Positions 9,011 to 59,741 of a stretch of 64,000 nt of DNA are shown here, piece by piece. The stretch lies in IMG/VR virus record IMGVR_UViG_3300021399_000142, one strand, 5' to 3'. Both the position numbers and the translations under genes were made by a program. This DNA comes from an uncultured virus (IMG/VR IMGVR_UViG_3300021399_000142). Its lineage: Duplodnaviria; Heunggongvirae; Uroviricota; Caudoviricetes. The number at the start of each line of letters is the position of its first letter. The first letter of the stretch is position 1. The notes beneath the pieces were generated by a model. It was not told where the DNA came from and searched no databases. It saw nothing but the letters and a program-made list of their open reading frames with translations.

Positions 9011-9286
9011 GTGTTAGATAAGAAGAATTTTTGTTTAATAGTAGACGCGATGAAGGAAAATTATGATAGAGGAAATCGAATTTATGACGATTTAAAGAAG
9101 TATAATATTTATATTGATAAGGAGAATCAGCCTCTTGATGTCATGTTAGAAAAGCTGATAAAAATAAATTTTAATAAATGGCAGAGTGATATTATTTTGA
9201 ATTACGCTTATCCTATTGAGAAAAGAGAAAATATATCTTCCGCAGATTTATATGATGAACTCGTTGGAACAGGAGATGAAAATTAA
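9011..9286 (+). CDS. Hypothetical protein
   Basis: GTG start with AAGGAG RBS; TAATG coupling to the helicase gene. Confidence 0.65.
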   Translation: MLDKKNFCLIVDAMKENYDRGNRIYDDLKKYNIYIDKENQPLDVMLEKLIKINFNKWQSDIILNYAYPIEKRENISSADLYDELVGTGDEN

Positions 9287-10488
9287 TGATATTAAATAAA
9301 AAGCAGCAAGATGGTTTAGATCTAGCAGTAAGGAGGTACTTAGCCGGTGAATCTTATACTACTATCGCCGGCTATGCCTAAGCTGGTTCTGGTAAAAGTA
9401 CTTTAGTCAGATTTATAGTAGAAGCTTTGGGCAATACAGGAATCAATCCAGATGAAGATATTGTTTATGCTTGTTATTGCGGAAAAGCCGTACAAGTTCT
9501 GATTGACAAAGGTAATCAAAATGCAATGACTCTTCATAAATTATTATATGATGCTATCCCAATGCCAAATGGTAAATTCTATTTTAAGCCTAAGATTCCA
9601 GGTTCTTTAGAATATAAAATTATAATAGTAGATGAAGTAAGTATGGTAAGTCAAGATTTTATTGATTTATTATTATCTCATGGTATTTACATTATTTTTA
9701 TGGGAGACCCAGGCCAACTAGGTGCTATAAAAGGTCAAGGAAATAATTTGTTAGCTCATCCGCATGTATTTTTAGATGAAATTCAAAGACAAGCCGCGGA
9801 ATCTGATATTATTAAACTTAGTATGTTAATTAGAGAAGGCAAAACAATTACGGGATTTAAAGGAAAAGATGCTATGGTTTTACCTAAAGGAACTTTAAAT
9901 ACAGGTATGTTATTATGGGCAGACCAAATCATTTGTGCAACTAATGCGACTCGAATAGCTCTTAATACTCAAGTAAGACAATTAAAAGGCTATACTAGAC
10001 CAGTAGAAGAAGGCGAAAAATTAATTTGTCTTAATAATAAATGGGATACGATAAGTGATAGAGGTAATGCTTTAACTAATGGAACAATAGGAACATTAAC
10101 AAATGTATTTGATAGTTGGCAAAGTTATCCTCAATATTTAAAAGTAAAAGACAATAAAGTTCCTCTTATAGTTGGAGCTTTTAATTCTAATAATGGAGAT
10201 GATTTTGGAAACTTATTTCTAGATAAACATTGTATTATTGAAGGAATTCCTTATTTAGATGGAATACAAAAGTATAGAATAGGAAAAATAAAAAAATATA
10301 AAGATACAATACCTTATGAATTTACTTATGCTTATGCAGCGACTTGTTGGAAATTTCAAGGTAGTTCTGCTGGAAAGGTCTTAGGTATTGAAGAAGGTTT
10401 CCCTTACAATAGAGAAGAACATAAAAAATTTTTATATACGATGTGTACTCGCGCAGAATCTAGATTTGTTCTTATTTTAAAAAATTAA
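9286..10488 (+). CDS. RecD/Dda-like SF1B helicase interrupted by an in-frame TAA in Walker A (proposed stop-hop, ~398 aa)
   Basis: ATG 9286 gives MILNKKQ...TTIAGYA*AGSGKSTL, in frame with ORF 9427-10488 (IVDEVSMV, MGDPGQL, IQRQ, KFQGS, YTMCTRA). Confidence 0.85.
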
Positions 10489-10556
10489 AATTTTTATGAT
10501 TTAAAACTTGAAACAACAAGATTTTTATTAACCCCAGATAAATGGAAAGGAATATT

Positions 10557-10763
10557 ATGAATCACGAGTTTGAAATAGAACCAGGTGTTATTTTATCTAA
10601 GTTAGATATAAAAGATGGAGACACTATTGTAGTAACAATAGACACAAATAAATGGGACCTTATACAAGCAACTGAAATGCTATATGCTTATCAGGAAATT
10701 TTTCCAAATAATAAAATAGTCGGTGCTTTAAAAGGAATGGAGATAAATAAAAATGAGCAATAA
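10557..10763 (+). CDS. Hypothetical protein
   Basis: ORF with GAAAGG RBS before ATG 10557. Confidence 0.55.
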   Translation: MNHEFEIEPGVILSKLDIKDGDTIVVTIDTNKWDLIQATEMLYAYQEIFPNNKIVGALKGMEINKNEQ

Positions 10764-10797
10764 ATATATTATTTTAGAATAGAATAAAGTCATTATT

Positions 10798-10826
10798 TTG
10801 TTTTTAATGAAAAATTATGATATAAT
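10798..10826 (+). promoter_or_regulatory. sigmaA-type promoter
   Basis: TTGTTT-17 bp-TATAAT with TG. Confidence 0.65.
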
Positions 10827-10853
10827 AAATTATAAAATGAAAGGAAAGAGTAA

Positions 10854-11051
10854 ATGTTTACATTTGAATTTTTTGTTAGATTATTCTTTAGTGGATTGTT
10901 TAGTGCTTGGCTTTTTTCGGTTTGTTCAGAAAATTTCATTTTTGAAGAAACATTGGCGGAAAAGATAGCATATTGGATTTCGACTATATTGTTCTACATT
11001 GCTTGTGTATGTACTGTAATAAGTGTATTCGGAATGGTTTGGAGATTTTAA
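10854..11051 (+). CDS. Small membrane protein with two hydrophobic segments
   Basis: 65 aa, two hydrophobic stretches, GAAAGGA RBS, first gene after a promoter. Confidence 0.6.
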   Translation: MFTFEFFVRLFFSGLFSAWLFSVCSENFIFEETLAEKIAYWISTILFYIACVCTVISVFGMVWRF

Positions 11052-11065
11052 AAAGGATAGAATAA

Positions 11066-11335
11066 ATGAAAGAGTATATAAATAAAGAAGATATAATTAA
11101 TTTTCTTAAGGGAATAGAAGCTTTACATTATAATGATAAATTAAGAATTAATATTATAAATGGAATAAATGCTATATCATCTACTACAGATGTAATAGAA
11201 CGTGAGAAGATTGATAAGGCTATTGAAGAACTTAAGCACGAAATTGGAGAAATAGCATTTGTATTGGATGATAGTTGGAATGATGGTCTTGAATTAATTT
11301 TAGAGATTCTTAAAAGAAATATAGGAGAAGAATAA
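11066..11335 (+). CDS. Hypothetical protein
   Basis: 89-aa ORF with RBS in a tightly packed cluster. Confidence 0.6.
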   Translation: MKEYINKEDIINFLKGIEALHYNDKLRINIINGINAISSTTDVIEREKIDKAIEELKHEIGEIAFVLDDSWNDGLELILEILKRNIGEE

Positions 11336-11442
11336 TGATTTATACAGGACAGAAAGTATATGACCCATTAACAAAAACATACAGTACGGGTTATTGGATT
11401 AAAGATAATCGAGGATATCGGTATCCTGTATGGACAGAGTGA
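11335..11442 (+). CDS. Hypothetical peptide (35 aa)
   Basis: TAATG coupling with AGGAG RBS; MIYTGQKVYDPLTKTYSTGYW... Confidence 0.5.
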   Translation: MIYTGQKVYDPLTKTYSTGYWIKDNRGYRYPVWTE

Positions 11443-11452
11443 GTGGGAAAAG

Positions 11453-11680
11453 ATGATAAGAAATAAAAGAAGATTAGAAAAAGCCTTAGAAATTACTTGC
11501 GAGCTGATGAATGGCTCTATCCTATATGGAATTGATGCGGATATATTGTGGAGCAAAATAATGGAGATAGACGGCGTTGTAAGTTCGGGGATTATCAAAG
11601 AATTTATACTTACTAATATTGATAGATTCAGTGATGATGATGAAGAAAGAAATAAAGCCATTAAAAGACTAGGATGGTAA
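11453..11680 (+). CDS. Hypothetical protein
   Basis: 75-aa ORF in the accessory cluster. Confidence 0.55.
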   Translation: MIRNKRRLEKALEITCELMNGSILYGIDADILWSKIMEIDGVVSSGIIKEFILTNIDRFSDDDEERNKAIKRLGW

Positions 11681-11694
11681 AGAGGTAAAAACAA

Positions 11695-11922
11695 ATGACT
11701 AAGTATAAGAAATATTTAGATATATGGTTTGCAAAAGGCACAAAGAATATCAGTCTACTTAATTATAAAGAACCATGGAAAGAAGTCGGTAATAAACCAA
11801 TGTGGGAAATAAGAACAAATGGCGGCAAAAGAAAAAATGGAGATACTTGTTTTGATTTTTTTATTCATTTGGGCTATTTAGTGTTTAATTATACTAACTT
11901 TAATTTACAAGGTAGAAAATGA
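11695..11922 (+). CDS. Hypothetical protein
   Basis: 75-aa ORF with GAGGT RBS. Confidence 0.55.
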   Translation: MTKYKKYLDIWFAKGTKNISLLNYKEPWKEVGNKPMWEIRTNGGKRKNGDTCFDFFIHLGYLVFNYTNFNLQGRK

Positions 11923-11929
11923 GGAGAAA

Positions 11930-12121
11930 ATGACAAAGGAAGAATTAAAAAGGGTGATACATAGTAAAACGCTTATTGAACTTAAACCTTGTTGCGCTTA
12001 TTATGAAGAGGAATGCCTTAGTGAACTCAAACCTTGTAGCGTTTATGAAGATGGATGCAACGACTGGGCTGGGTGTCCTTGTGTGTATTACAAGTCAGAA
12101 AGTGAGGGAGAAAATGACTAA
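11930..12121 (+). CDS. Cys-rich hypothetical protein
   Basis: 63 aa, GAGGAG RBS, internal repeat ELKPC x2. Confidence 0.55.
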   Translation: MTKEELKRVIHSKTLIELKPCCAYYEEECLSELKPCSVYEDGCNDWAGCPCVYYKSESEGEND

Positions 12122-12623
12122 GGAAGAACGAGAAAAGGCAATAGACTTATTAGACAATTTACTCGGTATGATAGAAGACAATCAAGGCAATGACTACGAT
12201 TTTGCACTTAAGAAGGGTATTGAAGCACTAAAACAAGAGTCAAAGGAAGGCAGAGATATTCATTTACCTTTATATAATGTTGGCGACTGGATAGAGTCTG
12301 GTACTGACGGAAATGCCTATAAATTATATATGAGTAATGGAATAGAGTTTGAAAAGCAACCTTATGAGGATGCAGTGAGCAGACAGGCGGTGCTTGATCT
12401 AGTTAATTCGGATTGGAAGTATGAAGAATTGGAAGTGCCTATAAATTGTTTGCCATCCGTAACACCTATACGCAAGGAGGGGTATTGGATAGAAGTCGAT
12501 GCCAACATGTATACATGCAGTAATTGTAGCCATTGCTTTACTATTGTACCAGAAGATAATCGGATACAACAGTTTAACTATTGCCCTAACTGTAAAACAA
12601 AGATGCAGGGGGTGAAAGAATGA
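12114..12623 (+). CDS. Phage protein with C-terminal zinc ribbon
   Basis: GAGGGAG RBS before ATG 12114; EDAVSRQAV...GYW..CSNC...YCPNC. Confidence 0.65.
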   Translation: MTKEEREKAIDLLDNLLGMIEDNQGNDYDFALKKGIEALKQESKEGRDIHLPLYNVGDWIESGTDGNAYKLYMSNGIEFEKQPYEDAVSRQAVLDLVNSDWKYEELEVPINCLPSVTPIRKEGYWIEVDANMYTCSNCSHCFTIVPEDNRIQQFNYCPNCKTKMQGVKE

Positions 12624-13012
12624 CAAGAGAAAAAGCAATAAAAGCAATACAAGATTTTCGAAATGATTACGATTCAAATGGTAGCGGGTATCTTGATGAA
12701 GCTTTAGAAATGGCAATTAAAGCACTAGAGCAAGAGCCTTGTGAGGATGCAGTGAGCAGACAAGCTGTTCACGATGGAATGATTAAATACGGATTTCATG
12801 CATCCGATATGACAATCACAGAATTTGTAGAAGATGTTCTACCACCCGTGACACCTATACGCAAAAAAGGAAAGTGGATTAAAACTGGACAGAGTTTCAT
12901 AGACCCAAACAAGTTTCTTTGTTATTCGTGTTCTGAATGTGGCAGTGATTCTGGAAAAGTAAAAACTAAATTCTGTCCTAATTGCGGTGCAGAAATGAAG
13001 AATGAATTATGA
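12620..13012 (+). CDS. Phage protein with C-terminal zinc ribbon (paralogue of the previous gene)
   Basis: EDAVSRQAV...GKW...CSEC...FCPNCGA. Confidence 0.7.
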   Translation: MTREKAIKAIQDFRNDYDSNGSGYLDEALEMAIKALEQEPCEDAVSRQAVHDGMIKYGFHASDMTITEFVEDVLPPVTPIRKKGKWIKTGQSFIDPNKFLCYSCSECGSDSGKVKTKFCPNCGAEMKNEL

Positions 13013-13025
13013 TAAGGAGATAATT

Positions 13026-13295
13026 ATGAAAATTTATATGGATATGGATTATATAGTTGGACGCCTCCGCTATGGTCATCTTGAAGGCGAAATTGATTTC
13101 ACTGAAGAGCAAGAAAAAGATTTTAAAACTCTTTTAAAGAAAGAATTAAATAAAGAAGAAATGACAGAAGAAGAACTTGATAGACTAGATGGATACAAAG
13201 AAGATATTCGTGATTGTAGCGAGATTATTGTGGACGATTGGCGAATTGATGGCTGCGGAGATTATCACTGGGAGGAGCTACTTGAAGAAGATTAA
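13026..13295 (+). CDS. Acidic hypothetical protein
   Basis: AAGGAG RBS before ATG 13026. Confidence 0.6.
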   Translation: MKIYMDMDYIVGRLRYGHLEGEIDFTEEQEKDFKTLLKKELNKEEMTEEELDRLDGYKEDIRDCSEIIVDDWRIDGCGDYHWEELLEED

Positions 13296-13440
13296 AATAA
13301 CTTTTACTTTTGAACCAGTGGAAGATAAACCCGGATATTATTGGTTTAACAAGAGAAACTGTCAAATAATATCAGAAAAAGTTTTAAAGGAGTCGTTTAA
13401 AAATTATGATAATAAAGACTTCATATTTTTACCAGATTAG
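13282..13440 (+). CDS. Hypothetical protein (52 aa, TTG start)
   Basis: GGAGGAG RBS before TTG; fills the gap between neighbours. Confidence 0.45.
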   Translation: MKKIKITFTFEPVEDKPGYYWFNKRNCQIISEKVLKESFKNYDNKDFIFLPD

Positions 13441-13858
13441 AAACTTTACTTCTAATCTCATACCTATATCCACCGCGATTTCAGACCCAATCTGGTACCG
13501 CCCGCCGCAAGATAAGGAATATTATATAGACAAGAGAGGAATAGTATGCGGGCTCCGATATGAGCCACTAATCGTGCAATTGCATGGACAAGGTGGGTGT
13601 CCATGCGAAGAGCGGAACCCCGCGAATTGTGAGTGTATGAAAGAGTATAAGCAATTACTTTACTCTCTTGTTGATAAAGAAAAAACCTTAAAAGCATTTG
13701 AATATTGTGCTAATAAAATTCAAAAAGAATTGGGATTTAAAGAAGAGCCTATTATTTGTCTTATTGTTTACGAAGCGCCGAATAATCCTTGTAGTGAGCG
13801 GAAGGCACTTCAAGAATTTTTTAATTGTAAAGAATTGGAGTATCCAATTAGGAGTTAG
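13406..13858 (+). CDS. DUF488-like protein
   Basis: N-terminal IKTSYF and C-terminal CLIVYEAPNNPCSER resemble the DUF488 pattern. Confidence 0.45.
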   Translation: MIIKTSYFYQIRNFTSNLIPISTAISDPIWYRPPQDKEYYIDKRGIVCGLRYEPLIVQLHGQGGCPCEERNPANCECMKEYKQLLYSLVDKEKTLKAFEYCANKIQKELGFKEEPIICLIVYEAPNNPCSERKALQEFFNCKELEYPIRS

Positions 13859-13869
13859 GAGGAAAAAAT

Positions 13870-14130
13870 ATGAAAATTGAAGATTATGAAAAAGTACGAA
13901 AATTATTAAGATCAAAAGAAGAATTAAATCAACTAGATAGAATATTTAATCGTCCTTGTCCTTCACTATTTTATTCTATTAAAAATTTTTCATTTTTTCA
14001 TAAATACGAGGGAGAAGAAGTTCCCCTTTACTCTTTTGATGAACAAACGCAGGAAGAGCTAAGAGAAAGTATTAAACAAGTAATTCATAAAAGATTAAAA
14101 GAAATTGACGAGGAGATAGAGAATATTTAG
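13870..14130 (+). CDS. Hypothetical protein
   Basis: 86 aa, AGGAGG RBS. Confidence 0.6.
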   Translation: MKIEDYEKVRKLLRSKEELNQLDRIFNRPCPSLFYSIKNFSFFHKYEGEEVPLYSFDEQTQEELRESIKQVIHKRLKEIDEEIENI

Positions 14131-14152
14131 ACGGAAGATAAATATCCTCCAC

Positions 14153-14181
14153 TTGATTTTTAATAAAAAATATGGTATAAT
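14153..14181 (+). promoter_or_regulatory. sigmaA-type promoter (copy 1 of a 39-bp direct repeat)
   Basis: TTGATT-17 bp-TATAAT with TG. Confidence 0.75.
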
Positions 14182-14211
14182 ATTTATATAAAAATGAAAG
14201 GATAAATAATC

Positions 14212-14625
14212 ATGGAAAAAGTAAAAAGAACTGAACGAGGATGGGCAGGACATTATTGCTGCTCTGGAGATTGCACTTTCCGCAGAAATACTTTACTTGA
14301 ATATAAAAATAAAAAATGGGTAATCTCAACAGTAGGTTGTCAAATTTGTAGACATGATGTTCTACCTTATTATAAGGCAGGAGATGTAATGACAATTGAC
14401 TCAAACCGCTGGTATGAAACAATGGCATTTGAAGCTTTTTCTGATGAATATAATGACGCAGATGTTTCAAAAGAAATTGAGTTTAATAGTGAATGGGGTA
14501 TCTGGGGTAAAACATGGGATGAGGTTAGGAAAAAATGTAATCAATATCCTGATCTTGCCGCGAATGAAATGCACGAAAAGGTTGTTAAAGAATTGACGGA
14601 GAAAATAAAACATGAAGAAATATAG
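14212..14625 (+). CDS. Hypothetical protein
   Basis: 137 aa, GAAAGGA RBS after a promoter. Confidence 0.65.
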   Translation: MEKVKRTERGWAGHYCCSGDCTFRRNTLLEYKNKKWVISTVGCQICRHDVLPYYKAGDVMTIDSNRWYETMAFEAFSDEYNDADVSKEIEFNSEWGIWGKTWDEVRKKCNQYPDLAANEMHEKVVKELTEKIKHEEI

Positions 14626-14809
14626 ATTGGTAGAAGAAAATCAATTGATAAGATTGCTTGAAGGGAATATGATTTACGAAGAATTATGTGCTCAAGGAGT
14701 GGATAACTGGACTGGATGTGATTTTATACATTATCCAGATGAGGATGAAATTGAAGCAGAGTTAAATAAATTTAATAATTATGTTAAAGTAATGGAGGTA
14801 GGTGACTAA
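14612..14809 (+). CDS. Hypothetical protein
   Basis: 65 aa with a GVDNW motif seen in small phage proteins. Confidence 0.6.
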   Translation: MKKYRLVEENQLIRLLEGNMIYEELCAQGVDNWTGCDFIHYPDEDEIEAELNKFNNYVKVMEVGD

Positions 14810-15044
14810 TATGAACGCAAAAGAAATAGAATTAATCAATCTTCTTATTAGAGAAAGTGTTGCTCATGGCGGAGATGTTGGTGGTGCTTATTTTTCAAAT
14901 ACTAATAGTCTTTTAAATACGATAGAAAATTATCTTGAGTATAAAGGGATTAAAGATCAATACGAAGTTATTACAACGCTTATAGATCCTTATGGTTGCA
15001 AGTGTGAAATTCCGCCAAAGATAGTAAAAAAGATACAGAATTAA
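14802..15044 (+). CDS. Hypothetical protein
   Basis: 80 aa, GGAGGT RBS. Confidence 0.6.
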   Translation: MTNMNAKEIELINLLIRESVAHGGDVGGAYFSNTNSLLNTIENYLEYKGIKDQYEVITTLIDPYGCKCEIPPKIVKKIQN

Positions 15045-15115
15045 TTCGCAAAGAATCTTTTTGGGGGTTTTAATTAGGTATATTATTTCTATATCTAAAT
15101 CTTTTTTATTATTTT

Positions 15116-15154
15116 ATTTTTAATAAAAAATATGGTATAATATTTATATAAAAA
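15116..15154 (+). repeat. 39-bp exact direct repeat of 14156-14194 containing an extended -10 promoter
   Basis: ATTTTTAATAAAAAATATGGTATAATATTTATATAAAAA at both positions. Confidence 0.85.
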
Positions 15155-15166
15155 AGAAAAATAATT

Positions 15167-15207
15167 TTGGTCAAATAAGTTTAAAGTTCATATTAACAAA
15201 ATTATAT
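15167..15207 (+). promoter_or_regulatory. Putative phage-specific (late) promoter motif upstream of the HNH gene
   Basis: TTGGTCAA-N25-AATTATAT; one of six fixed-spacing intergenic copies. Confidence 0.5.
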
Positions 15208-15253
15208 ATTTATAGAAACTATAAGTTTCAATAAATATTAAGGAGCATAGATT

Positions 15254-16117
15254 ATGTCAAATTATCAAGAATTAAATGAAATTTATCATCAATATTATCA
15301 AAAAGATTTTCCAAAGAGTACTTTATCTAAATGGAGAAAAGAAGGAAGAATAAAATCTGAATTGATTCCAGAAGGACAAAGAAAAGGTGGTGAATTATAT
15401 AATTATGATTTAAAAAGTTTTAAACAAGAAATTTTAAACCCAGATTATGCAAAAAAAATCAAAGCATATAAAGAAAAACCTGAAGATTATATTGGTAAAC
15501 AATGTGGATATTTATTAATAAAAGGAATTGTTCCTAAAGAAGAAAAAAAAGAACCTAATTACTCAGGAACTCTAATGTATTGTGAATGTTTAAAATGTAA
15601 AAGACCAGATTTAATACAAGTAAGATTTTCATATTTAACTCCAAATGGTAACTATACTCAAACTACTTGTGGATGTGGTAGAAAAGAAAGAGCATTTTTA
15701 GCATCATCAAGAGAAGGAGTTACAGAAAATTTTCTTTTAAATTTTAGTGAAGATTTTGAAAAATTTTTATTTACTCATAAAATGTTAGTTTCTACAACTG
15801 ATAAATATTATATTCAATGTAATATTAAAGAATATGAACAAGCAATAACGCATTTTTATAATGATAAAAATTTTAATAAAATATATAATTTTTGGTTAGA
15901 GCATAAAAAAGAAAATAATACTTTTTATGATTGGGCAAAACCAAGTTTAGATCATATAATTCCTAAATCTAAAGGCGGCACTAATAAACTAGAAAATTTA
16001 CAAGTATTAACTGTTTTTGAAAATCTATCAAAAAGAGATTTGACACAGCAAGAATGGAATGATTTTAAAATAAAAACTAATACAACTTCAGATTATTTTA
16101 TAGAAAATATACAATAG
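15254..16117 (+). mobile_element. Free-standing HNH homing endonuclease gene
   Basis: C-terminal PSLDHIIPKSKGGTNKLENLQVLTVFENLSK (HNH), central DYIGKQCGYL...CECLKC...TCGCG domain; more AT-rich than its neighbours. Confidence 0.85.
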
Positions 16118-16138
16118 AAGGGAGGGAGAATATACTAA

Positions 16139-19100
16139 ATGAATAGAATTGAAATTCACTCACATAGTCATTATAGTAATATTCGTTTACTTTGACTCTA
16201 TTAATAGACTTCCTCAACTAGCTGATTATGCGGCTGAGATTGGTCTTGCGGGAATTGCCTTAACTGATCACGAAACGGTAGCAGGGGCAGTTCAATGGAA
16301 AAAACAAGAGAAGAGAATAAGAGAAAAATATCCAAACTTTAAATGTATTATTGGTAATGAAATTTATCTTAAAAAAGAAAGAGATATGGGCGGGAAATAT
16401 CCGCATTTCATTTTATTAGCAAAGGATAAAGAGGGATTTCGTCAACTTAGAATTTTATCTTCTATTGCGTGGATGAATAGCTACTTTGATAGAAGAATGG
16501 AAAGAGTTGTAACTTTAAGAGAAGACATAGAAAAGATAATAGGCGGGAACCCGGGTCATGTGATTGCGTCTACAGCTTGTTTAGCGGGAACCGTGAATTC
16601 AAATGTTCTTATAATGGAGAATGCTCGCAGAATAGGTGATGCAGAAACAGCGGAGAAAGCAAAGAACGAGATTATCGAATTTGTGCTCTGGTGTAAGAAA
16701 ATCTTTGGTGAAGATTTTTATTTGGAAGTAGCACCTGCCGCAAACAGAGAACAGATAATTGTCAATAAAAAGGTCGCAGAATTATCAAAAGTCTTTAATG
16801 TAAAGATGGTAATTGGATCAGATGCTCATTATTTAAAGAAAGAAGATGCTGTAGTACATGAAGCATTTCTTAACTCTAAAGGCGGAGAACGTGAAACAAA
16901 AGATTTTTATGAGTATGCTTATCTTCAAACAGAAGAAGAAATAAAAGAGAATTTAACTCCTTCTATTGTTGATTTGTATGAAGATATGTGTGCAAACTCA
17001 ATGGAAATCTTTGATAAAATAGAAGATTATTATTTAGATTATCCTCAACAAATTCCAAAGGTTGTTGTTCCTTTTGTTGAAAAAGGATATTATACAATTA
17101 ACGGAGTAACAAAAGAAGAATATCCAACTTTATATAGTATGGGTATTTCTGATGACAATATTGAAAGATATTGGTTATCTGAATGTCTTGATGCGTTAGT
17201 TAAAAAACATTTAATAGGTGATAAAAGATATTTAGAAGAACTTGAACTCGAAGCAAAGATTAAGAGAATTGTAGGTGAAAGACTTAATACTAATATGTTT
17301 TATTATCCTATAACTCTTAAACATTATATTGATTTAATTTGGGAGTGCGGGAGTCCGGTTGGTCCGGGAAGAGGTTCAGCTCCAACAGGTCTTAATCACT
17401 GGTTGTTGGGGATTACACAATACGACCCAATCAAGTATGGTCAGCAGTTCAGAAGATATATGAACGAGGGTACGAGAGAATTAGGGGACATAGATATTGA
17501 CATCTCACCAGCTAGACGTAGTTATATCATAGACCAGATTAAGAAGGAACGAGGCGAGCACTTCCGCAAAGACATAGACGATTTAAGTAAAAAGAATTTA
17601 GGAGCAGCTCTTGTTGCGACATTTGGTACAGCGACAACAAAGAAAGCTATCCAGATTGCTTGTAAAGGCTATCGTTCAGAAGAATATCCAGATGGTATTG
17701 ACGTAGATACTTCACAATATATTTCTTCTCTTGTTCCATCAGAAAGAGGATTCGTATGGAGTCTTAAAGACTGTTATTATGGAAATAAAGAAAAAGGTCG
17801 TAAACCAGTTCAGACATTTATAAATACAGTAGATGAATATCCTGGTTTATTTAATGTTATGACAGGCATTGAGAATATGATTGTAAGTCGTAGTTCTCAT
17901 GCATCTGGAGTTATTTTTATGGACGAAGATCCATATCAGTTTGGTGCATTTATGAGAACACCGAGCGGAGACATTATAACTCAGTTTGACCTTCATGATT
18001 GTGAAAGTATAGGTATGACGAAATATGATTTCTTGGTTACATCCGCTATGGATAAACTTACGCAGGCAATTAAATTTTTACAAGAAGATAATCAGATTGA
18101 CCCAAGCTTAAGTTTAAGAGAAGTATATGAAAAATATTTCCACCCAGATGTAATTAATTTTGAGGATAAAGAAGTATGGGATTCAATTAAAAGGAATGAT
18201 GTGCTTGATCTTTTTCAGTTTGATTCGGTCGAGGGTGGTAAAGGTATAAAGTCAATTCAGCCAGAGAACTTAACTGAATTATCAAACGTTAATGGTCTTA
18301 TCCGATTAGTAGCTCCAGAAGGTTCTACAGAGAGACCGATAGAAAAGTATCAAAGATTTAAAGCGAATCCGCAACTTTGGTATGATGAAATGAAGTCTTA
18401 TGGTTTAACAGAAGAGAATGTTAAAACTCTTGAAAAATATTATAAGACAAGTTATGGTATTAGTATTTCACAGGAAAATTTCTTGTTTTCTCTTGGTGAC
18501 GAAGGAGTATGCGGTTGGGACTTCAGTAGATGTAATGATGCAAGACGAGTTATTTCTAAAAAGAAAATGGATAAACTTCCAATTCTCAAACAAGAAATAA
18601 TAAATGACGCGGCAACCCCAGAACTAGGAAGATATTATTGGGATCATGTAGTACTTCCAATTTCGTCATATGCCTTTTCAGACCCACACGCATTGGCTTA
18701 TGGTATGGTGGCATATCAAATGGCTTATATAGCAACAAAGTGGAATCCGCTTTATTGGACAACCGCTTGTTTAGTTGTTAATAGTGAAAGTTTGGAGATT
18801 GAGTCTGATGATTTAGATGATGACGAACAAAAGAAAAAGAATAGAAACTGTGATTATGGTAGAATAGCGAGTGCGATTAGTAGAATTAAACAGAATGGTG
18901 TAGAAATATCTTTGATTAATATTAATACATCTGATTATGGATTTAAGCCTGATGTTGAAAATAATCGTATCCTTTATGGTCTCAAACCTTTAAGTAATAT
19001 TAACGAGGAAACTATTGAACAAATTAAGGCGGGAAGACCTTATATTGGAATTAAGGACTTTATGAATAGATGTCCTCTTGGAAAGAAGGCAATGATAAAT

Positions 19101-20078
19101 CTTATTAAGGCGGGAGCTTTTGATGAAGTTGAAACAGAGTTATCTTCAAGAAAAGAAATTATGGCATATTATATTTATAAAGTCTGCGGTATGAAAACAA
19201 GATTAACTTTACAGAATTGGAACGGTTTAGTTCAGAGTAATTTAGTACCTAAAAATTTAGAGTTACAGATTAGAATTTTTAATTTTAATAAATATATAAA
19301 GGCTTATTGTAAGGTTGGTCAATATTATCAGTTTAATGATATTTGTATGCAGTTTTTTGAGAAATTTATGCCAGAAGTCTTGGATAGTGTTGAAACAATT
19401 AATGGAGCATTTTGTATGTTGCAGAAAGACTGGGACAAGATTTATCAAGCTGGAATGGGCGTGGCACGAGATTGGATTAAGGATAACCAAGTAGAAATCT
19501 TGAAAAAGTATAATGCATCAATATTTAAAGAAATGTGGGATAAATATGCGGAAGGCAATTACTCACATTGGGAAATGGATTCAGTATGTTTCTATCATGG
19601 TGAGCATGAATTAGAAAATATTGATTATAATAAATATGCTTTATCTGATTTTAATAATTTAAGAACAGATGATATTGAATATTATTATAAAAGAGGAAAT
19701 CTTAATATTCCTATTTATAATTTGCACAGAATTGCGGGTACTGTTTTGGATAAAAATGACACAAAGAATTATGTTGTGTTACTCACAAAAACTGGTGTTG
19801 TAAATGTTAAATTGAGTCGTGACCAGTATGCAAAGTATAAGAAAAGAATTAGTGAAATTCAGCCAGATGGTTCAAAAAAGATTGTTGAGCAAGGTTGGTT
19901 CACAAGAGGAAGAATGTTGATGTTTACAGGATATAGGTCAGATGATATAACTTTCAGAGTTAAGACTTATAAGAATACAATGACACATCAGATTTATTTG
20001 ATTGAGGATGTTGTTGGTGATGAAATTAAACTGAGACATGAAAGAGTCAATGGAATAGAAGAAGATTATGATGAATAA
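16139..20078 (+). CDS. dnaE: DNA polymerase III alpha-like (family C); requires a +1 frameshift at codon 18 (CTT TGA C), ~1312 aa
   Basis: GGAGGGAG RBS + ATG 16139 gives MNRIEIHSHSHYSNIRLL*. The +1 frame continues DSINRL...ALTDHE, GPGRGS, GDIDID, SHASG, KYDFL. Confidence 0.9.
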
Positions 20079-20079
20079 T

Positions 20080-20120
20080 GCGGAAACCGGGTCCCATCTA
20101 AAGGACTCGGATTCCCGCGA
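20080..20120 (+). terminator. GC-rich hairpin after dnaE
   Basis: GCGGAAACCGGGTCC...GGACTCGGATTCCCGC imperfect stem; no clear U tract. Confidence 0.35.
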
Positions 20121-20131
20121 AAGGGGTATAA

Positions 20132-20398
20132 ATGAAAGATAATAAGAATAATTATGATTCAATAATAATGACAAAGGAAAATATGGTTAATCATCCCCCT
20201 CATTATTCAGAGGGTAGAAAATATGAGCCAATTGATGTAATTGTAGATTGGAATCTTAACTTCCCGCTCGGAAACACTATCAAGTATATATCTCGTGCTG
20301 GACGAAAAATTGATACACTCGAAGATTTAAAGAAAGCGGCTTGGTATTTAAATTATGAGATACAACGTCTAGAGGTTGAATTGGACACGAATGATTAA
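20132..20398 (+). CDS. DUF3310 family protein
   Basis: VNHPPHY...IDVI...GNTIKYISRAGRK...EDLKKAAWYL. Confidence 0.85.
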   Translation: MKDNKNNYDSIIMTKENMVNHPPHYSEGRKYEPIDVIVDWNLNFPLGNTIKYISRAGRKIDTLEDLKKAAWYLNYEIQRLEVELDTND

Positions 20399-20421
20399 TT
20401 AAGATACAGTAATTTTCAAAT
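20381..20421 (+). promoter_or_regulatory. Putative phage-specific promoter motif upstream of nrdD
   Basis: TTGGACAC-N25-TTTCAAAT. Confidence 0.45.
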
Positions 20422-20473
20422 AATATTACAAACCCTTTAAAATACTTTAATTAATTAAGGAGGAAGTAATCAA

Positions 20474-22621: not shown

Positions 22622-22632
22622 GAGGTGATAAT

Positions 22633-23172
22633 ATGCGTTATGCAGGATTAAAACTTAATGATGCAACGAATTGTGACCAGGGCATCGTAGTTTCTTTCTG
22701 GGTGCAGGGCTGCCCGCACAAATGTGCGGGTTGTCATAACCCAGAGACTTGGTCTACAGAGGGAGGTAAAGAGCTTCCCGCTAATATAAAAGAACAAATA
22801 GTTAAAGCGATTTCCGCAAATGGAGTTCAAAGAAACTTTAGTGTGCTGGGCGGTGAACCACTGTTTAACGGTAATTCAAAATTGGTTTTGGAAATTTTGA
22901 ATTCGGTTCGTGCCTCTTATCCAAAAATTAGAATTTTCCTCTGGACAGGATATCTTGCAGAGGATTTATTTAACACTACTGATACTGTAATTCAATCTAT
23001 TCTAGAAAAAGTTGATGTTTTGATTGATGGACCGTTTCAGCAAGAAAAGAAGGATTTAACAATACCTTTAAGAGGTTCTAAGAATCAGCGTATATGGGAG
23101 AGAGACCCTGCCGCAGGTTGGATAGATAAGACAGAAGAATATGATAAAGTTGCATTTTCTAAAAAATTATGA
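22633..23172 (+). CDS. nrdG: Anaerobic RNR activating radical-SAM enzyme
   Basis: GCPHKCAGCHN, LGGEP, DVLIDGPF, RGSKNQR. Confidence 0.95.
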   Translation: MRYAGLKLNDATNCDQGIVVSFWVQGCPHKCAGCHNPETWSTEGGKELPANIKEQIVKAISANGVQRNFSVLGGEPLFNGNSKLVLEILNSVRASYPKIRIFLWTGYLAEDLFNTTDTVIQSILEKVDVLIDGPFQQEKKDLTIPLRGSKNQRIWERDPAAGWIDKTEEYDKVAFSKKL

Positions 23173-23178
23173 TATAAT
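23150..23178 (+). promoter_or_regulatory. sigmaA-type promoter
   Basis: TTGCAT-17 bp-TATAAT with TG. Confidence 0.7.
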
Positions 23179-23209
23179 AATATAAGAAAAATATAAGAGG
23201 AGAAAAATT

Positions 23210-46271: not shown

Positions 46272-46302
46272 GCGAAAACCTCCTTTTTTCTCTCTTCAAG
46301 AA

Positions 46303-46343
46303 ATATGAAAAGAGTAGAGTGAAAATTGATATAACTTGCCCAA
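46303..46343 (-). promoter_or_regulatory. Putative phage late promoter motif
   Basis: TTGGGCAA-N25-TTTCATAT on the - strand. Confidence 0.55.
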
Positions 46344-46355
46344 TAGAAAGGCAAT

Positions 46356-46413
46356 AAAAAAGGCGGGGACCCAGTCCCACCCCCGTATTAGAGTAGTCCA
46401 GGTCCCCGCTTTT
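46356..46413. terminator. Terminator after the tape measure gene
   Basis: AAAAAGGCGGGGACC...GGTCCCCGCTTTT. Confidence 0.7.
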
Positions 46414-46421
46414 AATTTATT

Positions 46422-55745: not shown

Positions 55746-55840
55746 ATGCCCTATCTCCTTTTTCTCGTATTTTAAAAATAAAAAAATCGGCTAGAGTGAT
55801 ATAGTACTCTAGCCGTTTATCCTTTTCACTCTCTAAGATA

Positions 55841-55881
55841 ATTTTAAATTACCAAGAGAAAGATGAAATGTTTTTGTCCAG
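55841..55881 (-). promoter_or_regulatory. Putative phage late promoter motif upstream of the TMP
   Basis: CTGGACAA-N25-TTTAAAAT on the - strand. Confidence 0.5.
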
Positions 55882-55883
55882 AC

Positions 55884-56417
55884 TTAACCAAGCTTCTCAA
55901 CAATAGTCTTAAGTAGAGTTAAATTATCTGGATCTCCTATTTTCTTTTGTATCTCAGTCGCATCCAAGTCAAGGTTCTTATAATCAGTTGTCACATCTTC
56001 GATAATACCCTTAACAGAGTTGCAGTAAGTGTAGTAAGCATTGACAGTCTTTTCAATGCCATCTATTAAAAACTCATATTCAGTTTTAGGAATTGCAGAA
56101 ATTACCATATCCGCAAGGTCATACTTTTCTATTTCATCGTATAATGCTGCGGGGTCCGCCTTATCTTCTTCAGAGAACTCAATTCCTGGAGCATAGGCGT
56201 AGACAATTTCCAAAGTAGTATAAACATCCATCTGCACAGGATTAGCAAAATGATATTCGTTCTGAGCTACCTGCTGTAAAACTGCGGTAATTAATTTGAG
56301 TTTTTCATTAATAGAGAGATACTGTTTAACTTCAATCTCTTTATCATTAATTTTAATCACCTTAATCTTAAGGGGTTGTTCTTTTTTAAGGTCATTAAAA
56401 GCTATATTCTCTATCAT
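55884..56417 (-). CDS. Hypothetical protein upstream of the TMP (possible tail assembly chaperone)
   Basis: 177 aa, acidic, EIEVKQYLSINEK; AGGAGG RBS; synteny. Confidence 0.5.
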   Translation of the reverse strand: MIENIAFNDLKKEQPLKIKVIKINDKEIEVKQYLSINEKLKLITAVLQQVAQNEYHFANPVQMDVYTTLEIVYAYAPGIEFSEEDKADPAALYDEIEKYDLADMVISAIPKTEYEFLIDGIEKTVNAYYTYCNSVKGIIEDVTTDYKNLDLDATEIQKKIGDPDNLTLLKTIVEKLG

Positions 56418-56448
56418 AATAGTTCCTCCTTTTATCTCTATTATCTAT

Positions 56449-56477
56449 AGTATAACAAAAATTTTTCTAGTTGTCAA
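56449..56477 (-). promoter_or_regulatory. Near-consensus sigmaA promoter inside the structural module
   Basis: TTGACA-17 bp-TATACT with TG on the - strand. Confidence 0.75.
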
Positions 56478-57538
56478 GTTTTTGATACGAAAGAAATATC
56501 TTTTAATATTTTATTAACAACAATATCATCTATTGTTGTATCAACCGCTTTACCAGTCGTGTCTATAAACATTTCAGTTAACATGCTTTTTAATTGCGCT
56601 CCATCTGAAATCGTTAAAACATTTTTTAATTTTTTAATTTGATTAAAAATTGTATAATAATCCATTAAATCAGCACCGCTAGCTTTAATTTGGGTATTTG
56701 TGTAGCTATTATCTCCGCCTTTAAAACCGATAACCCTATCATAAGATAAATTTTTAGTAAAAAATAGCTTTTTTGTTAAATCATAATTAAAAGTAATTTG
56801 TTCATCTGAAGCATCGCTTCCAGCTTCATACAAAGACGTATCTAAACCTTCAATTATGTGTCCTTTATTAAACTGCTGATACCTACCTTTTTTATTCCAT
56901 AAATTAGTTGGAGTTTTATTTACTTCACTACCATATTGTTCAATTATGGAACTATGTACCATAAAACCATATGTATATCCTGGTTGCATATCTTTAGCCA
57001 TTATTGAAGTATATAATTTATTAAACGCTGATAAAAAAGCCTCTTCTTGTTCTGTGTGCTTTATTTTTTTAGCTAAAGTATTTAAAGAGGTAGAAATATT
57101 AAAACCTTGTTCTATTCCATGACTTGAAGTTATCTTTAAATATTGTATTATTTCTTCTTCAGATAAAGAAACCATAGCTACAGTTCCTTCCTTAGTCTCT
57201 ACATAATATCTATAATTCACAACAGAACTTCCAGTAACATAGGCTCTAAAATTTTGTAAAAGAAGATAACCCTTCAATAATAGCTGTCGCTTTTTAATGC
57301 TGCCTCGTTGGAAACTATAAATTGTTTCTTCTTTACCTTTAGAATTTATATAGGTTTTTTCAATTAATAAAAATTCTTGCCCTATTTTATCAAGCTCAGT
57401 TAATAATTTTTGTATATCAACAGATACTATTTTTTGACTATCTTTTACAAAAATATCGGCAACTTCATTTACAATAGCTTCTATTTGTTTATCTTTACTT
57501 CGTGATTGAGAAAAAAGATTTGGAGTTTTACTTACCAT
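56474..57538 (-). CDS. Hypothetical protein, possible PD-(D/E)xK-like nuclease
   Basis: 354 aa, AT-rich; GHIIE...GGDN..NTQIK resembles an E..D..QxK motif. Confidence 0.35.
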   Translation of the reverse strand: MVSKTPNLFSQSRSKDKQIEAIVNEVADIFVKDSQKIVSVDIQKLLTELDKIGQEFLLIEKTYINSKGKEETIYSFQRGSIKKRQLLLKGYLLLQNFRAYVTGSSVVNYRYYVETKEGTVAMVSLSEEEIIQYLKITSSHGIEQGFNISTSLNTLAKKIKHTEQEEAFLSAFNKLYTSIMAKDMQPGYTYGFMVHSSIIEQYGSEVNKTPTNLWNKKGRYQQFNKGHIIEGLDTSLYEAGSDASDEQITFNYDLTKKLFFTKNLSYDRVIGFKGGDNSYTNTQIKASGADLMDYYTIFNQIKKLKNVLTISDGAQLKSMLTEMFIDTTGKAVDTTIDDIVVNKILKDISFVSKT

Positions 57539-57554
57539 CTTCTCCTCCTTTCAA

Positions 57555-57598
57555 TAAAAAATAGGGCGGCAGTCAACCGACCACCGCCCGCATTTTTA
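57555..57598. terminator. Terminator after the tail tube gene
   Basis: AAAAAATAGGGCGG...CCGCCCGCATTTTT. Confidence 0.7.
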
Positions 57599-57651
57599 TA
57601 ATTTTAAGCCAAATCAATGACTTTAACTATTAGCCTTCAGCTATGCTTATT

Positions 57652-58917
57652 TTAGTTTCCAGATTGTGTTTCAGTTTTACCACTTTCACCTGGTGTTTCA
57701 GAATTAGTTGACTGAACTGCTGTAAAAGTAGGTGTATCAGTTGCAGGTTTTGTTGTATCACAATCCATGCACTCATCTTCTTCACCGCTAATACTAAGAA
57801 TCTGAATATCGCACATTGTCTTCTTATCACATCTTGTGATAGTATAACCAGGGAATGCATCCATAGTGAAATTGAATGTACTTGGGTCACCAGAAGCCGC
57901 CATAGTAAATGTGAAACCAGACTGAACCTTTACTTTAGGGAAAGTAATGTTAGCAGCAACGTCCTTACCTGTTGCTTCATCACGGAATAATGTTTGTGCT
58001 TCAACGTAGAAGTATCCACCGAAGTCTTCAGGTCCAATAGTAATTGTCTGAACACTATTTGTCATAGCAAGATAGAAATCAACGATAACTGTCTTACCGA
58101 TTGCTGATGCAGGAACCTTAAGAGTTGCAGGAGCATTAGCAGTAACTGTAATAGCTTCTGCAATGTCATCTACCTCTAAAAAGTCCTCAGCTCTGCCAGC
58201 AGAGCCAATAACAGTTGCATACATAGGAATGCAATCGCAAATTAAAAAGCTTGTAGCATTATCGAGACCTGTTTCTTCTTTAAGGTCATTTAATTCAATT
58301 TCAATACCACCTTTAGTAGCGTCGCCAGTGATAGTACCAACAGTCTTTTCAAGAGTAACGTGTACACGTGCACTCTCACCAACAGCATGGTTAATTAAAC
58401 CAGCGCCAGAAAGAACTGCAAGACCCATAGGAGACATAAGAGCGTCTTCTACAGTAAAAGTCATTGTCTTCTCACCTTCCCAAGCGAGCAAACGAGCATA
58501 ACCTCTACCACCCTGTGCATAAACAGTTGTAGATGCCTGTTCAAAGTTAGAAGTTCTAGCTGTATCAATCATAAATACAGGCTGATACTTCTTGAAAACT
58601 TTGTTACCAACCTTCTGGTTGTTAGCTGCTGCTTTGAAGGTTACATCGCAAATTTCTCTTCATAATATTTAATTAATATTATGGACTATCTCTTATAATT
58701 ACTCTAGGTAATTATATACCCATTTCGATTTACATACCAATAGTAAACCTACATAATCTATTAAGATTATTAGTCTCTACATCGCGAGGTGTCGTTAACG
58801 CCCCATGACTCGGGATTCTCACTTTAAGTGCATTCCCCGATAGCCACTCTTATTAAATGACCCCAGTGGTTGCTGGATAGGGTATATTAGTGCGAGATTA
58901 TTCACACCAAATTTCAT
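57652..58917 (-). CDS. Major tail tube protein, split by a group I intron (exon 1 58917-58904, exon 2 58660-57652; 340 aa spliced)
   Basis: AAGGAGG RBS + ATG 58917. Splicing gives MKFGVREICDVTFKAA...MIDTA, in frame with ORF 57652-58572 (YAQGGRG, FTFTMAASGDPSTFNFTMDAFP); synteny. Confidence 0.85.
58661..58903 (-). ncRNA. ORF-less group I self-splicing intron (243 nt, IA-like)
   Basis: 5' exon ends in U paired to G in P1 (GGUGU|GA with UCGCACU). Terminal G. R element GUAGAGACUA (58771-58780), S element AAGAGAUAGUCC (58683-58694), P3 AUAUACCC/GGGUAUAU, P8 and P9 hairpins. Removal restores the frame. Confidence 0.92.
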
Positions 58918-58943
58918 ATTTAATTTTCCTCCTTAAATTTTTC

Positions 58944-59741
58944 TTAATTAAAAAATTTTTGAAATTTATTTCTCTTTCTTAATAAAAATAATTCAGGATT
59001 ATTTTTATACATAAAAGAGTAAAGTTTTAAAGAATCTTTTTTTCCAAAACGAATTGTTCTTGAAGAAGCATCATAACTGCCACCTTCTACCTTAGCTTTT
59101 TCTTTTAAGATTCTTAATAACTCGTCTAGAAATTTTTTACTACCACAACAAAAACTTGTATTTATTCGATTATTTTTTATTAAACAAACACATCCATCTC
59201 CATCAAAATACCCTCTAATAAAATCAGATAAATACTTTTCGGGAATAATTGTAGTAGGAAAAGTTAAAGTCAAACTTTTTTGTTCGGAACCACCTAAATT
59301 AATTAAATCATCATAAATGACCTTACAACAAAAATTAATTCTTGATGCTTGCCTATCTACATAATCTTGAATAGGGCCTTCATACTTTAATTCTTCAGCA
59401 AATTTTTTTATGATATATTTATCTTTATTTTGTACTGTAATATCAAACATCTTCCCGCCATAAATACATCCATCTGCATACCAGAATCCTAACATATAAG
59501 CCATATTAGGTGTCCAAGTTTTAAAATAATCTTGATTTATATGCCACTTTCTACCGTTTTGGCTCTGAATTTGACTTTTTTCTATTTTAGATATTTTTTT
59601 TATTCTTTTTCCATTATGATAACAAAAAGAATATATTTGATTTTTACTGTATTGAGAACCAAAAAACTCAACCCATTCTGGCAAGGTTTTACTCTCACTC
59701 TGAGATAAGAGAATCTCCTTGTGTTCCGGTGTTATTGGCAT
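58944..59741 (-). mobile_element. Free-standing LAGLIDADG homing endonuclease gene
   Basis: Two motifs, AYMLGFWYADGCI and FIRGYFDGDGCV; AAGGAGG RBS before ATG 59741. Confidence 0.88.

Follow-up and report, generated by a model that had tools for sequence, protein, structure and literature searches.

The RF2-type +1 frameshift of prfB, named for release factor 2 (RF2), takes place at the heptamer CUU UGA C with a Shine-Dalgarno-like stimulator ~3 nucleotides (nt) upstream of the CUU. In collaborative homing, a group I intron that lacks an open reading frame (ORF) is accompanied by a neighboring free-standing endonuclease, as with cyanophage psbA/F-CphI. In phage T4, the MobA endonuclease and the 50-nt translational bypass of gene 60 make up a mobile cassette, the insert of which blocks the cassette's own nuclease (PMC5009743, citing Bonocora et al. 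2011). The endonuclease of such a cassette can later be lost while the gap stays (PMC5009743; 10.1101/2022.08.31.505936), and Manning & Atkins, in a passage on the bypass cassette, term it unique (10.1101/2022.08.31.505936). Stop-hops have been engineered in E. coli, where they work at low efficiency (Weiss et al., cited in PMC5009743), and that 2016 review, in its part on such hops, has no natural in-frame stop hop as known (PMC5009743). The same review counts 81 instances of "byp" inserts in Magnusiomyces mitochondria (PMC5009743). Natural bypassing so far rests mainly on T4 gene 60 and yeast mitochondria. Here, we describe three interrupted genes on one DNA of an uncultured virus, IMG/VR record IMGVR_UViG_3300021399_000142, of which the whole 64,000-nt stretch analyzed is called the window below. 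The genes encode an accessory helicase, the DNA polymerase DnaE, and a virion structural protein, and all three interruptions fall within the first 5-32 codons of these conserved genes.

An earlier note on this DNA had located the three interruptions and read them as parts of one homing system with tiny recoded inserts. The interruptions are where that note placed them, and they recur in independent assemblies and runs. The idea of one system did not hold, since the three devices are independent elements. The reading that we favor, and to which we give somewhat better than an even chance, is that an uncultured ruminant-gut phage carries three independent homing-endonuclease footprints, namely, an HNH/dnaE cassette read by a +1 shift, a stop-hop in the helicase gene, and an ORF-less intron in the structural gene.

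Results

The HNH endonuclease gene (15254-16117, plus strand) is free-standing and lies directly before dnaE, as had been noted, with 22 nt between its stop at 16117 and the dnaE ATG at 16140. Its match to the Pfam HNH family PF01844 is a narrow pass (7e-05, 23.3 bits against a cut-off of 21.4), and it also matches PHROG endonuclease VII/HNH families at values down to 1.7e-11. The dnaE gene opens on the plus strand with a frame-0 segment (16140-16195) of 18 codons (MNRIEIHSHSHYSNIRLL) that carries the HxH motif of the PHP domain and ends at TGA (16193-16195). From 16184, the gene reads CGT TTA CTT TGA CTC, and the break after codon 18 coincides with CTT TGA C (16190-16196, plus strand), a proposed +1 frameshift site with one surplus T. 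The main frame, in +1, extends from 16194 to 20078 on the plus strand, starts DSINRLPQ..., and encodes DNA polymerase III alpha (Pfam DNA_pol3_alpha, 1.4e-33; PHP, 4.8e-17; also HHH_6 and a finger domain).

A scan of viral contigs for DnaE returned 24 loci, which we designate by L numbers. The extra T is found in four of these, three on near-identical contigs from three metagenomes (L001-L003) and one in which the DnaE is 46% identical (L016), while the other 20 have an uninterrupted RLLD[CS]IN encoded by CTT/CTN GAY without an extra T. When the HNH protein was used in tblastn, it was found adjoining dnaE on the upstream side in exactly the four broken loci; one weak match in L011 is not adjacent to dnaE. 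A second scan, made with an alignment of two HNH proteins, gave 15 loci, 4 of them contigs already known. Among the new ones, L130 and L131 (HNH 81% and DnaE 60% identical) have the same break, CGC TTA CTT TGA C, such that CTT TGA C is identical across the window clade, L016, and L130/L131, lineages with DnaE proteins 46-60% identical. L134, with an HNH protein 46% identical, has TCT TAG TCT within the same PHP motif; this is the single TAG in 826 codons, and the code of L134 is therefore standard. Counted together, dnaE is broken in 4/5 HNH-adjacent lineages and in 0/20 loci without the HNH gene. The co-occurrence that the earlier note proposed to look for in related phages is thus borne out for dnaE, with one exception (L132, discussed below).

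The window dnaE is also a mosaic, and its identity partner switches at the shift site. The first 55 nt are 78-80% identical to L130 and L016 and 58.6% identical to L004, whereas over the following 1260 nt, identity is 87-92% with L004 and 57-65% with L130 and L016. L004, with a DnaE 97% identical to that of the window, has neither the HNH gene nor the extra T. With this recombination boundary at the insert, the first 55 nt of dnaE move together with the HNH gene. Within this segment, three lineages keep N-R-[ILF]-E-[IC]-H-[SA]-H-[ST]-H-Y-S-N-[IL]-R-L-L in frame 0, even where a serine codon has switched from AGT to TCA, and since the motif is kept through synonymous and conservative changes, frame 0 of dnaE is under selection. 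The insert-free site of L010, CGT TTA CTT GAC, is one T short of the shift site, so the device would be cheap to evolve.

The cassette that we propose would consist of the HNH gene, the ribosome-binding site, and the first 18 dnaE codons, with the extra T at its right end changing CTT GAC to CTT TGA C. Ribosomes that start at ATG 16140 would meet a slow UGA, at which the peptidyl-tRNA-Leu would slip from CUU to UUU, and translation would continue in the +1 frame. By analogy with T4 MobA/gene 60, the extra base probably protects the carrier genome from its own nuclease. The dnaE device very probably marks where a mobile HNH cassette ends, and an RF2-type +1 ribosomal shift, drawn from the likeness to prfB, would be the best reading of how it is decoded.

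The dnaE gene of this phage group is crowded with further selfish elements. A GIY-YIG ORF (3518-4402) splits the dnaE of L016 (1094-5859) into two pieces, LAGLIDADG-like matches lie within the dnaE span of L018 and L019, and several loci have a dnaE span 1-1.4 kb longer than normal.

Distant homologues of the HNH protein are found at seven further loci. In six of them, the HNH gene precedes a DNA methyltransferase gene with a stop-containing gap in its DPPY motif; at the seventh (L136), the gene that follows is a different one, without a visible break. The six methyltransferase gaps, of 6-9 nt, are CCT TAGCTT TAT, CCA TAACTT TAC, GGC TGAATC GGA, and GGT TGAATA GGA, together with GGT TAAT GGA in L140 (7 nt, frame-changing) and TGA TAAC TGA in L141. 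In L141 (1900-3528), TGA aligns with the G of the methyltransferase motif GDCLE and with the GG of the HNH motif, and from these alignments, this phage apparently reads TGA as Gly (NCBI table 25). If TGA is Gly in L141, the genetic code and the two codons for take-off and landing have all changed together, as re-pairing of one peptidyl-tRNA predicts and readthrough does not. Matched codons on either side of a stop are also seen in TCT TAG TCT (the L134 dnaE), GGT TAA T GGA, and TGA TAA C TGA.

The helicase gene (9286-10488, plus strand) encodes a Dda/RecD-like superfamily 1 helicase (Pfam AAA_30, 8e-19, and UvrD_C_2, 2.4e-07, with the stop read as X) that shares 36-40% identity with the Dda-like helicases of Enterococcus phages and Bacillus phage AR9. 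It had been taken for a core replicative gene; it is an accessory one, and the DnaB-like replicative helicase of the window is intact at 2817-4361. The break lies in the Walker A motif. The last codon of GYA, GCC (9376-9378, plus strand), is the proposed Ala take-off codon, and it is followed by a 6-nt coding gap (9379-9384, plus strand) made up of TAA (9379-9381) and the proposed landing codon GCT (9382-9384), after which comes GGT (9385-9387), and the gene reads IAGYA*AGSGKST. The gap is absent from homologues: 22 aligned homologues have GY--AGSGKST wherever the N terminus is present, which leaves the window with 6 nt more, and homologues in the protein collection read GY--AG[ST]GKST, with the window's own cluster called as a shortened protein of 353 aa. 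Two other entries of that collection, P0012 and P0021 (helicases with identities of 74% and 65%, one of them from a contig of 76 kb), are 352-353-aa calls with the same shortened start as the window and may be further interrupted helicase lineages.

An alignment-based scan gave 80 helicase loci, and we looked at the 64 in which the N terminus is included; L110 and L112-L126, partial or 26-36% identical, were omitted. In 13 of the 64, a break separates the Ala codon of GYA from the Gly codon that follows it; the other 51 are intact. Three (L105, L106, and L108) were set aside as poor assembly or decay because the frame changes repeatedly along the gene, leaving 10/64 loci that are cleanly broken, with one break each, at the same codon boundary, by five types of insert. 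The window type is GCC TAAGCT GGT (6 nt). The other types are GCC TAGGTA GGT (6 nt; L086, which uses the standard code, as its long neighboring genes have no in-frame TAG), GCC TAAACC GGT (6 nt; L095), GCT followed by TGACT or TAACT and then GGA (5 nt; L099-L103 and L107, phages reading TAG as Gln), and GCC CGGTG GGT (5 nt; L084, which has an HNH gene directly upstream, PHROG 1e-24). With all five types, omission of the insert gives back GYAG[ST]GKST, and the triplet before the resumed Gly codon is GCT, GTA, ACC, ACT, or GTG, which is Ala-cognate or one pairing step off. The 5-nt types are beyond rescue by readthrough; only a hop would carry ribosomes across the gaps of 5 and 7 nt at homologous sites, and in this way they lend indirect support to a stop-hop product.

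The TAG reassignment in L099-L103 and L107 follows from in-frame TAG codons where relatives have Gln (DPF*LPP and KE*V*IL; the helicase of L099 lies at 2501-3600), and the TGA and TAA in their gaps remain stops. The three loci set aside have a single extra C before GG at Walker A, which creates the very rare codon CGG (3/17,763 codons in the window). A +1 shift at this hungry codon may occur in them, but we set this reading aside owing to the repeated frame changes.

A metagenome scan found six further helicases of the window clade with 85-100% aa identity, and all six keep GCC-stop-GCN, with TAA GCT in four, TAA GCA in one, and TGA GCA in one. The stop is thus kept across the clade while the Ala codon varies synonymously. 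In GCC TAA GCT of the window, as in GCC TAA GCA and GCC TGA GCA, codons for the same tRNA stand on either side of the stop, which is the pattern of a stop-hop. The ratio of nonsynonymous to synonymous change (dN/dS) is 0.08-0.12 for the whole gene and 0-0.10 for the 31 codons that precede the stop, at a synonymous difference (pS) of up to 0.56, and these low values indicate that both sides of the stop are translated. Both small inserts, that of dnaE and that of the helicase, are kept under selection and need compensation in expression, which supports this part of the earlier reading.

Upstream of the break, an RNA hairpin (9334-9379, plus strand; -21.2 kcal/mol), the 3' arm of which ends at the take-off codon, is predicted in the window and kept in L144-L147. 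Taken alone, the window hairpin is unexceptional against shuffled sequences (z -1.5). For the 50 nt ending at the take-off codon, the five types fold at -18.7 (window), -14.8, -12.4, -9.5, and -5.2 kcal/mol, while the same 50 nt in 50 uninterrupted helicase loci have a mean of -5.2 and a median of -4.5 kcal/mol, and only 1/41 distinct uninterrupted sequences reaches -12.4 kcal/mol. The difference gives a Mann-Whitney p of 0.0024 with the 50 loci and 0.0029 with the 41 distinct sequences, values that are uncorrected for kinship among the controls and that compare interrupted sequences somewhat higher in G+C. The hairpin also takes in a perfect Shine-Dalgarno-like AAGGAGG (9328-9337), 39 nt upstream of the take-off codon; it consists of two rare AGG Arg codons and is kept in L144-L147.

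In the mechanism that we propose for the helicase, UAA would enter the A site, and the peptidyl-tRNA-Ala would leave GCC, re-pair with GCU six bases on, and resume at GGT, giving the canonical GYAGSGKST; this hop is probably aided by the hairpin, which closes at the take-off codon. The endonuclease behind the gap may have been lost, may lie elsewhere in the genome, or may never have been present. From these comparisons of sequence, the helicase gene probably contains a natural stop-hop, and the endonuclease that belongs to it is not in view. The upstream 91-aa ORF (9011-9286) is absent from L146 and is therefore not needed.

The third interruption is an insert in a structural gene on the minus strand. 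A free-standing LAGLIDADG endonuclease gene (58944-59741, minus strand; Pfam LAGLIDADG_3, PF14528, 8.7e-11, 42.4 bits against a cut-off of 22.5; PHROG_4645 endonuclease, 2.4e-48) ends 26 nt before the ATG of the structural gene at 58917, so the direct succession of the two genes is as described before. Exon 1 (58904-58917, minus strand) of this probable major tail gene is 14 nt long, ATG AAA TTT GGT GT, and it is followed by an ORF-less, group I-like intron of 243 nt (58661-58903, minus strand) with stops in all three frames. The insert therefore lies inside codon 5, after 14 nt, rather than after codon 4 as first put. Exon 2 (57652-58660, minus strand; PHROG_2729 virion structural protein, 3.2e-48) is 49-73% identical to 15 relatives in the alignment. 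Excision of 58903-58661 gives MKFGVREICDV in frame, like 20 uninterrupted relatives, in which this sequence comes straight after the upstream 245-aa gene. The earlier label "tail tube" is borne out as far as a virion structural protein (PHROG) by the tape measure gene; the label itself is positional, as it rests on this PHROG family and on a place two genes upstream of the tape measure gene. The predicted structure of the protein is too poor for a fold search (mean predicted local distance difference test score, 51.5), and a sequence search for a relative of solved structure found none (best E-value, 0.89).

Several features of the insert are those of a group I intron. Exon 1 ends in U, and the exon sequence UUGGUGU pairs with an internal guide (P1), GCACUAA, ten bases into the insert, in a helix that the fold predicts. 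The last base of the insert is G, after a 9-bp hairpin, and the insert contains AAGAGAUAGUCC, which aligned to the Rfam group I core. Its fold has a z-score of -4.26, and 0/200 shuffles folded as well. On these grounds, the insert is likely a group I intron. A search of the whole window against Rfam at the gathering score and a blastn search of the intron against GenBank phages gave no match. Among 22 structural-gene loci, the intron and the LAGLIDADG gene occur together in 2 (98-100% identical to the window) and neither is present in 20, so co-occurrence extends to this pair. The ribosome-binding site of the structural gene is a near-copy of the one before the LAGLIDADG gene, and the endonuclease gene may have been inserted between duplicated ribosome-binding sites, in a collaborative-homing layout, as was proposed earlier for an intron with a free-standing LAGLIDADG gene.

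The window has a G+C of 34%. Its plus-strand replication module comprises a Sak4-like protein, a DnaB-like helicase, a primase, RecJ, and a methyltransferase-like protein and continues with the Dda/RecD-like helicase, DnaE, NrdD/NrdG, and a dUTPase, while the minus strand carries the structural module, including a 3107-aa tape measure protein. The closest GenBank phages are Enterococcus phages EF1, EF5, H1, and VRE9 and the SPbeta group, with a protein identity of only 36-40%, and megablast of 9000-20100 against GenBank phages gave no match. DNA runs that carry window sequence are labeled animal gut, sheep gut, and bovine gut metagenomes. A recoded genetic code in the window was considered and rejected, as TAA, TGA, and TAG all terminate genes (25, 7, and 4 of 36).

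Two further places in the window deserve mention. ORFs of 354 and 177 aa lie between the structural and tape measure genes (55884-57538, minus strand), and the gap between major tail and tape measure genes is the usual place of frameshift-made tail-assembly chaperones. Near the helicase, a small methyltransferase-like ORF (8063-8590) has an NPPF motif and weak Pfam Dam and Eco57I matches; its copies in L049-L051 are 82-84% identical, with helicases only ~55% identical, which suggests exchange of this ORF.

Discussion

That the extra T and the six bases are sequencing or assembly errors in intact genes is scarcely credible, and as far as DNA data allow, this explanation is already refuted. Some related contigs are indeed error-ridden, such as L105, L106, and L108, in which the frame changes several times along the helicase. 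The dnaE site, however, is the same in three viral contigs, each from a different metagenome, and recurs in two further lineages whose proteins are 46% and 60% identical, the helicase insert is present in six metagenome contigs with DNA differences of up to 20%, contigs from four runs in four studies span both sites with no indel among the rows listed, and the T run at the dnaE site is just three bases long. The presence and conservation of the inserts are observed in DNA, as are selection, co-occurrence, and mosaic boundaries. It is also very improbable that dnaE and the helicase are dead genes, inactivated by scars from endonuclease cutting and sloppy repair. The breaks do sit where endonucleases would cut, and Dda-type helicases are dispensable in some phages, but there is one break per gene in otherwise intact frames of ~1290 and ~400 codons that are kept in diverged relatives. 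Helicase dN/dS is low on both sides of a stop that stays a stop (TAA/TGA) while flanking codons change synonymously, the 18 frame-0 codons of dnaE retain HxH in three lineages through synonymous and conservative changes, and no second DNA polymerase is seen in the window. We consider it improbable, too, that the inserts are regulatory, throttling DnaE and the helicase or tying them to release-factor activity, with the endonucleases incidental. UGA and UAA are both read by RF2, which had led the earlier note to suggest a coupling of replication enzymes to release-factor status. T4 bypassing is ~50% efficient, and a regulatory role for it has been discussed (10.1101/2022.08.31.505936). In these phages, however, the break tracks the HNH gene and not phylogeny, as L004 lacks both in spite of its close DnaE; the related gaps also use TAG, such that all three stop codons occur among them, and one has CGG instead; and in dnaE, a T inserted into CTT GAC leaves no choice but UGA. 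A coupling to RF2 is thus unsupported.

Two further alternatives apply to one gene each. Translation of dnaE could start, with no frameshift, at the main-frame TTG at 16149 and give a polymerase without the first PHP histidines, the peptide from the ATG being a leftover. The ORF listing opens the main frame at this TTG, L130 likewise has a TTG there, and PHP metal ligands are degenerate in some DnaE enzymes. We nevertheless give this start little chance: the main frame of L016 has no ATG, GTG, or TTG upstream of the shift, and the Shine-Dalgarno sequence GGGAGGGAG fits the ATG, at a distance of 11 nt, while the TTG is 20 nt away. In addition, frame 0 keeps MNR[IL]EIH[SA]H[ST]HYSN[IL]RLL with a six-fold serine switch, while the main-frame reading there is hydrophobic filler, and the TTG is a by-product of conserved [IF]-E codons. 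For the helicase, a near-cognate or suppressor tRNA could read through UAA and add two residues, since A-X-A-G-S-G-K-S fits Walker A. The inserts of the window, L086, and L095 are in frame, and the codon after the stop always encodes a small residue (A, V, or T), yet we find readthrough unlikely. It would give no rescue to the 5-nt inserts at the same boundary elsewhere, a single suppressor would not serve both TAA and TGA within the clade, and the window has no tRNA gene. A sense codon would be an easy route to a two-residue insertion, but 0/6 relatives have one; full-length homologues all have an uninterrupted Walker A loop, and the enrichment of upstream hairpins would have no part to play in readthrough.

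A number of observations weigh against the reading of three homing-endonuclease footprints decoded or spliced as proposed. The dnaE of L132 is unbroken despite an adjacent HNH gene (58% identical); its site has diverged to CGT TTG CTT GAT AGT, and these synonymous changes (TTG, GAT, AGT) may be another route to immunity or reflect another target. Upstream of the CTT in dnaE, we found no Shine-Dalgarno-like stimulator (the window reads AGT AAT ATT CGT TTA, and none of the three lineages has a GGAGG-like run) and no hairpin (-2 to -3.5 kcal/mol), and the yield of the shift could be low without such elements. The main-frame TTG stands a few codons past the ATG in the window and L130, and a start there could make a polymerase lacking the HxH motif with no shift needed. 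In the helicase, landing triplets of the other types (GTA, GTG, ACC, and ACT) are only near-cognate to Ala, the hairpin of L086 is weak, and a two-residue addition fits A-x4-G-K-S. No endonuclease was found beside the window helicase, where the 91-aa ORF and the other neighbors have no family; Pfam found none over the window beyond the HNH and LAGLIDADG genes, and HNH, GIY-YIG, and LAGLIDADG homologues were not found in six close relatives. The link to endonucleases proposed earlier therefore stands for dnaE and not for the helicase. The HNH gene of L084 was considered as a relative of the dnaE-linked HNH and rejected (hhalign probability, 0.1). The intron falls short of the gathering score of Rfam RF00028 (16.4 bits against 50; E, 0.092), and a 29-nt pattern of its core occurs in viral contigs only in two near-identical contigs already known. 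Removal of the extra bases at the RNA level is possible; no RNA runs are listed among the sequencing runs carrying window DNA. The footprint reading remains the one we prefer, in which decoding, splicing, and immunity are what we infer from sequence.

A wider proposal is one on which we are evenly divided, namely, that phages carry a broad class of homing-endonuclease cassettes that protect themselves with an untranslated micro-gap of 1-9 nt, read by a +1 shift or a hairpin-assisted hop. The device would be neither an intron, an intein, nor a 50-nt bypass but a gap in a catalytic motif of the target gene. A full-text literature search, with supplements outside its reach, found no paper on endonuclease-linked gaps of 1-9 nt. 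If the wider proposal is true, the helicase site of the window would be the first natural stop-hop, and the covariation of GGT...GGA and TGA...TGA across genetic codes would be evolutionary proof of it. The window and its relatives form a graded natural series in which homologous sites carry gaps of 1, 5, 6, 7, and 9 nt, some with a hairpin and some without, in three genetic codes. With such a series, the rules that govern short hops and unstimulated +1 shifts could be put directly to the test. A further suggestion is that even the best conserved motifs of essential genes may be open to invasion by homing endonucleases, with hardly any cost. Annotation of broken-looking phage genes would change as well, as gene callers at present shorten the helicase to 353 aa and take a false TTG as the start of dnaE.

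Comparison with Known Systems

The dnaE site shares with prfB the heptamer CUU UGA C, with its poor UGA-C termination context after a slippery CUU. Unlike prfB, it has no Shine-Dalgarno-like stimulator three bases upstream and no evident autoregulatory logic, and it lies in a phage polymerase gene to which it would have come with a mobile cassette. The helicase site resembles the synthetic stop-hops in having matched codons around a stop, with nine bases standing for one amino acid (GCC UAA GCU); it differs in being natural, conserved under selection, and preceded by a hairpin. Like the byp inserts, the gaps are short untranslated blocks in coding sequence that would be skipped by ribosomes. 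The byp blocks, which are mobile, are longer than the 1-9-nt gaps described here, have no endonuclease link, and belong to a yeast mitochondrion, whereas the present gaps are in phages, by endonuclease genes.

The intron arrangement is of a known kind. As in collaborative homing, an endonuclease gene lies just upstream, the intron at the 5' end is ORF-less, and the two are jointly present or absent in relatives. Compared with psbA/F-CphI, the enzyme is a LAGLIDADG endonuclease, the target is a phage structural gene, and the intron lies 14 nt into the gene. It is carried by one lineage only, and its co-mobility thus rests on a single event.

The closest likeness is to T4 MobA/gene 60. Here, too, a free-standing HNH-type gene lies directly upstream (of dnaE, not of the window helicase), and an untranslated insert near a conserved 5' end, with a stop or hungry codon after the take-off codon, would move with the cassette. 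A 5' stem-loop is present at hop sites, and a gap may exist without an endonuclease. The gene 60 set of a 50-nt gap, matched GGA codons, a take-off hairpin, a nascent-peptide signal, and a split topoisomerase gene was not found. In contrast to the 50 nt of gene 60, the gaps measure 1 and 6 nt in the window and 5-9 nt in relatives. The interrupted gene remains in one piece, the genes affected encode DnaE, a Dda-like helicase, and a methyltransferase rather than a topoisomerase, and one of the devices would be a +1 shift and not a bypass. The device works like the T4 MobA/gene 60 family and is not a member of it.

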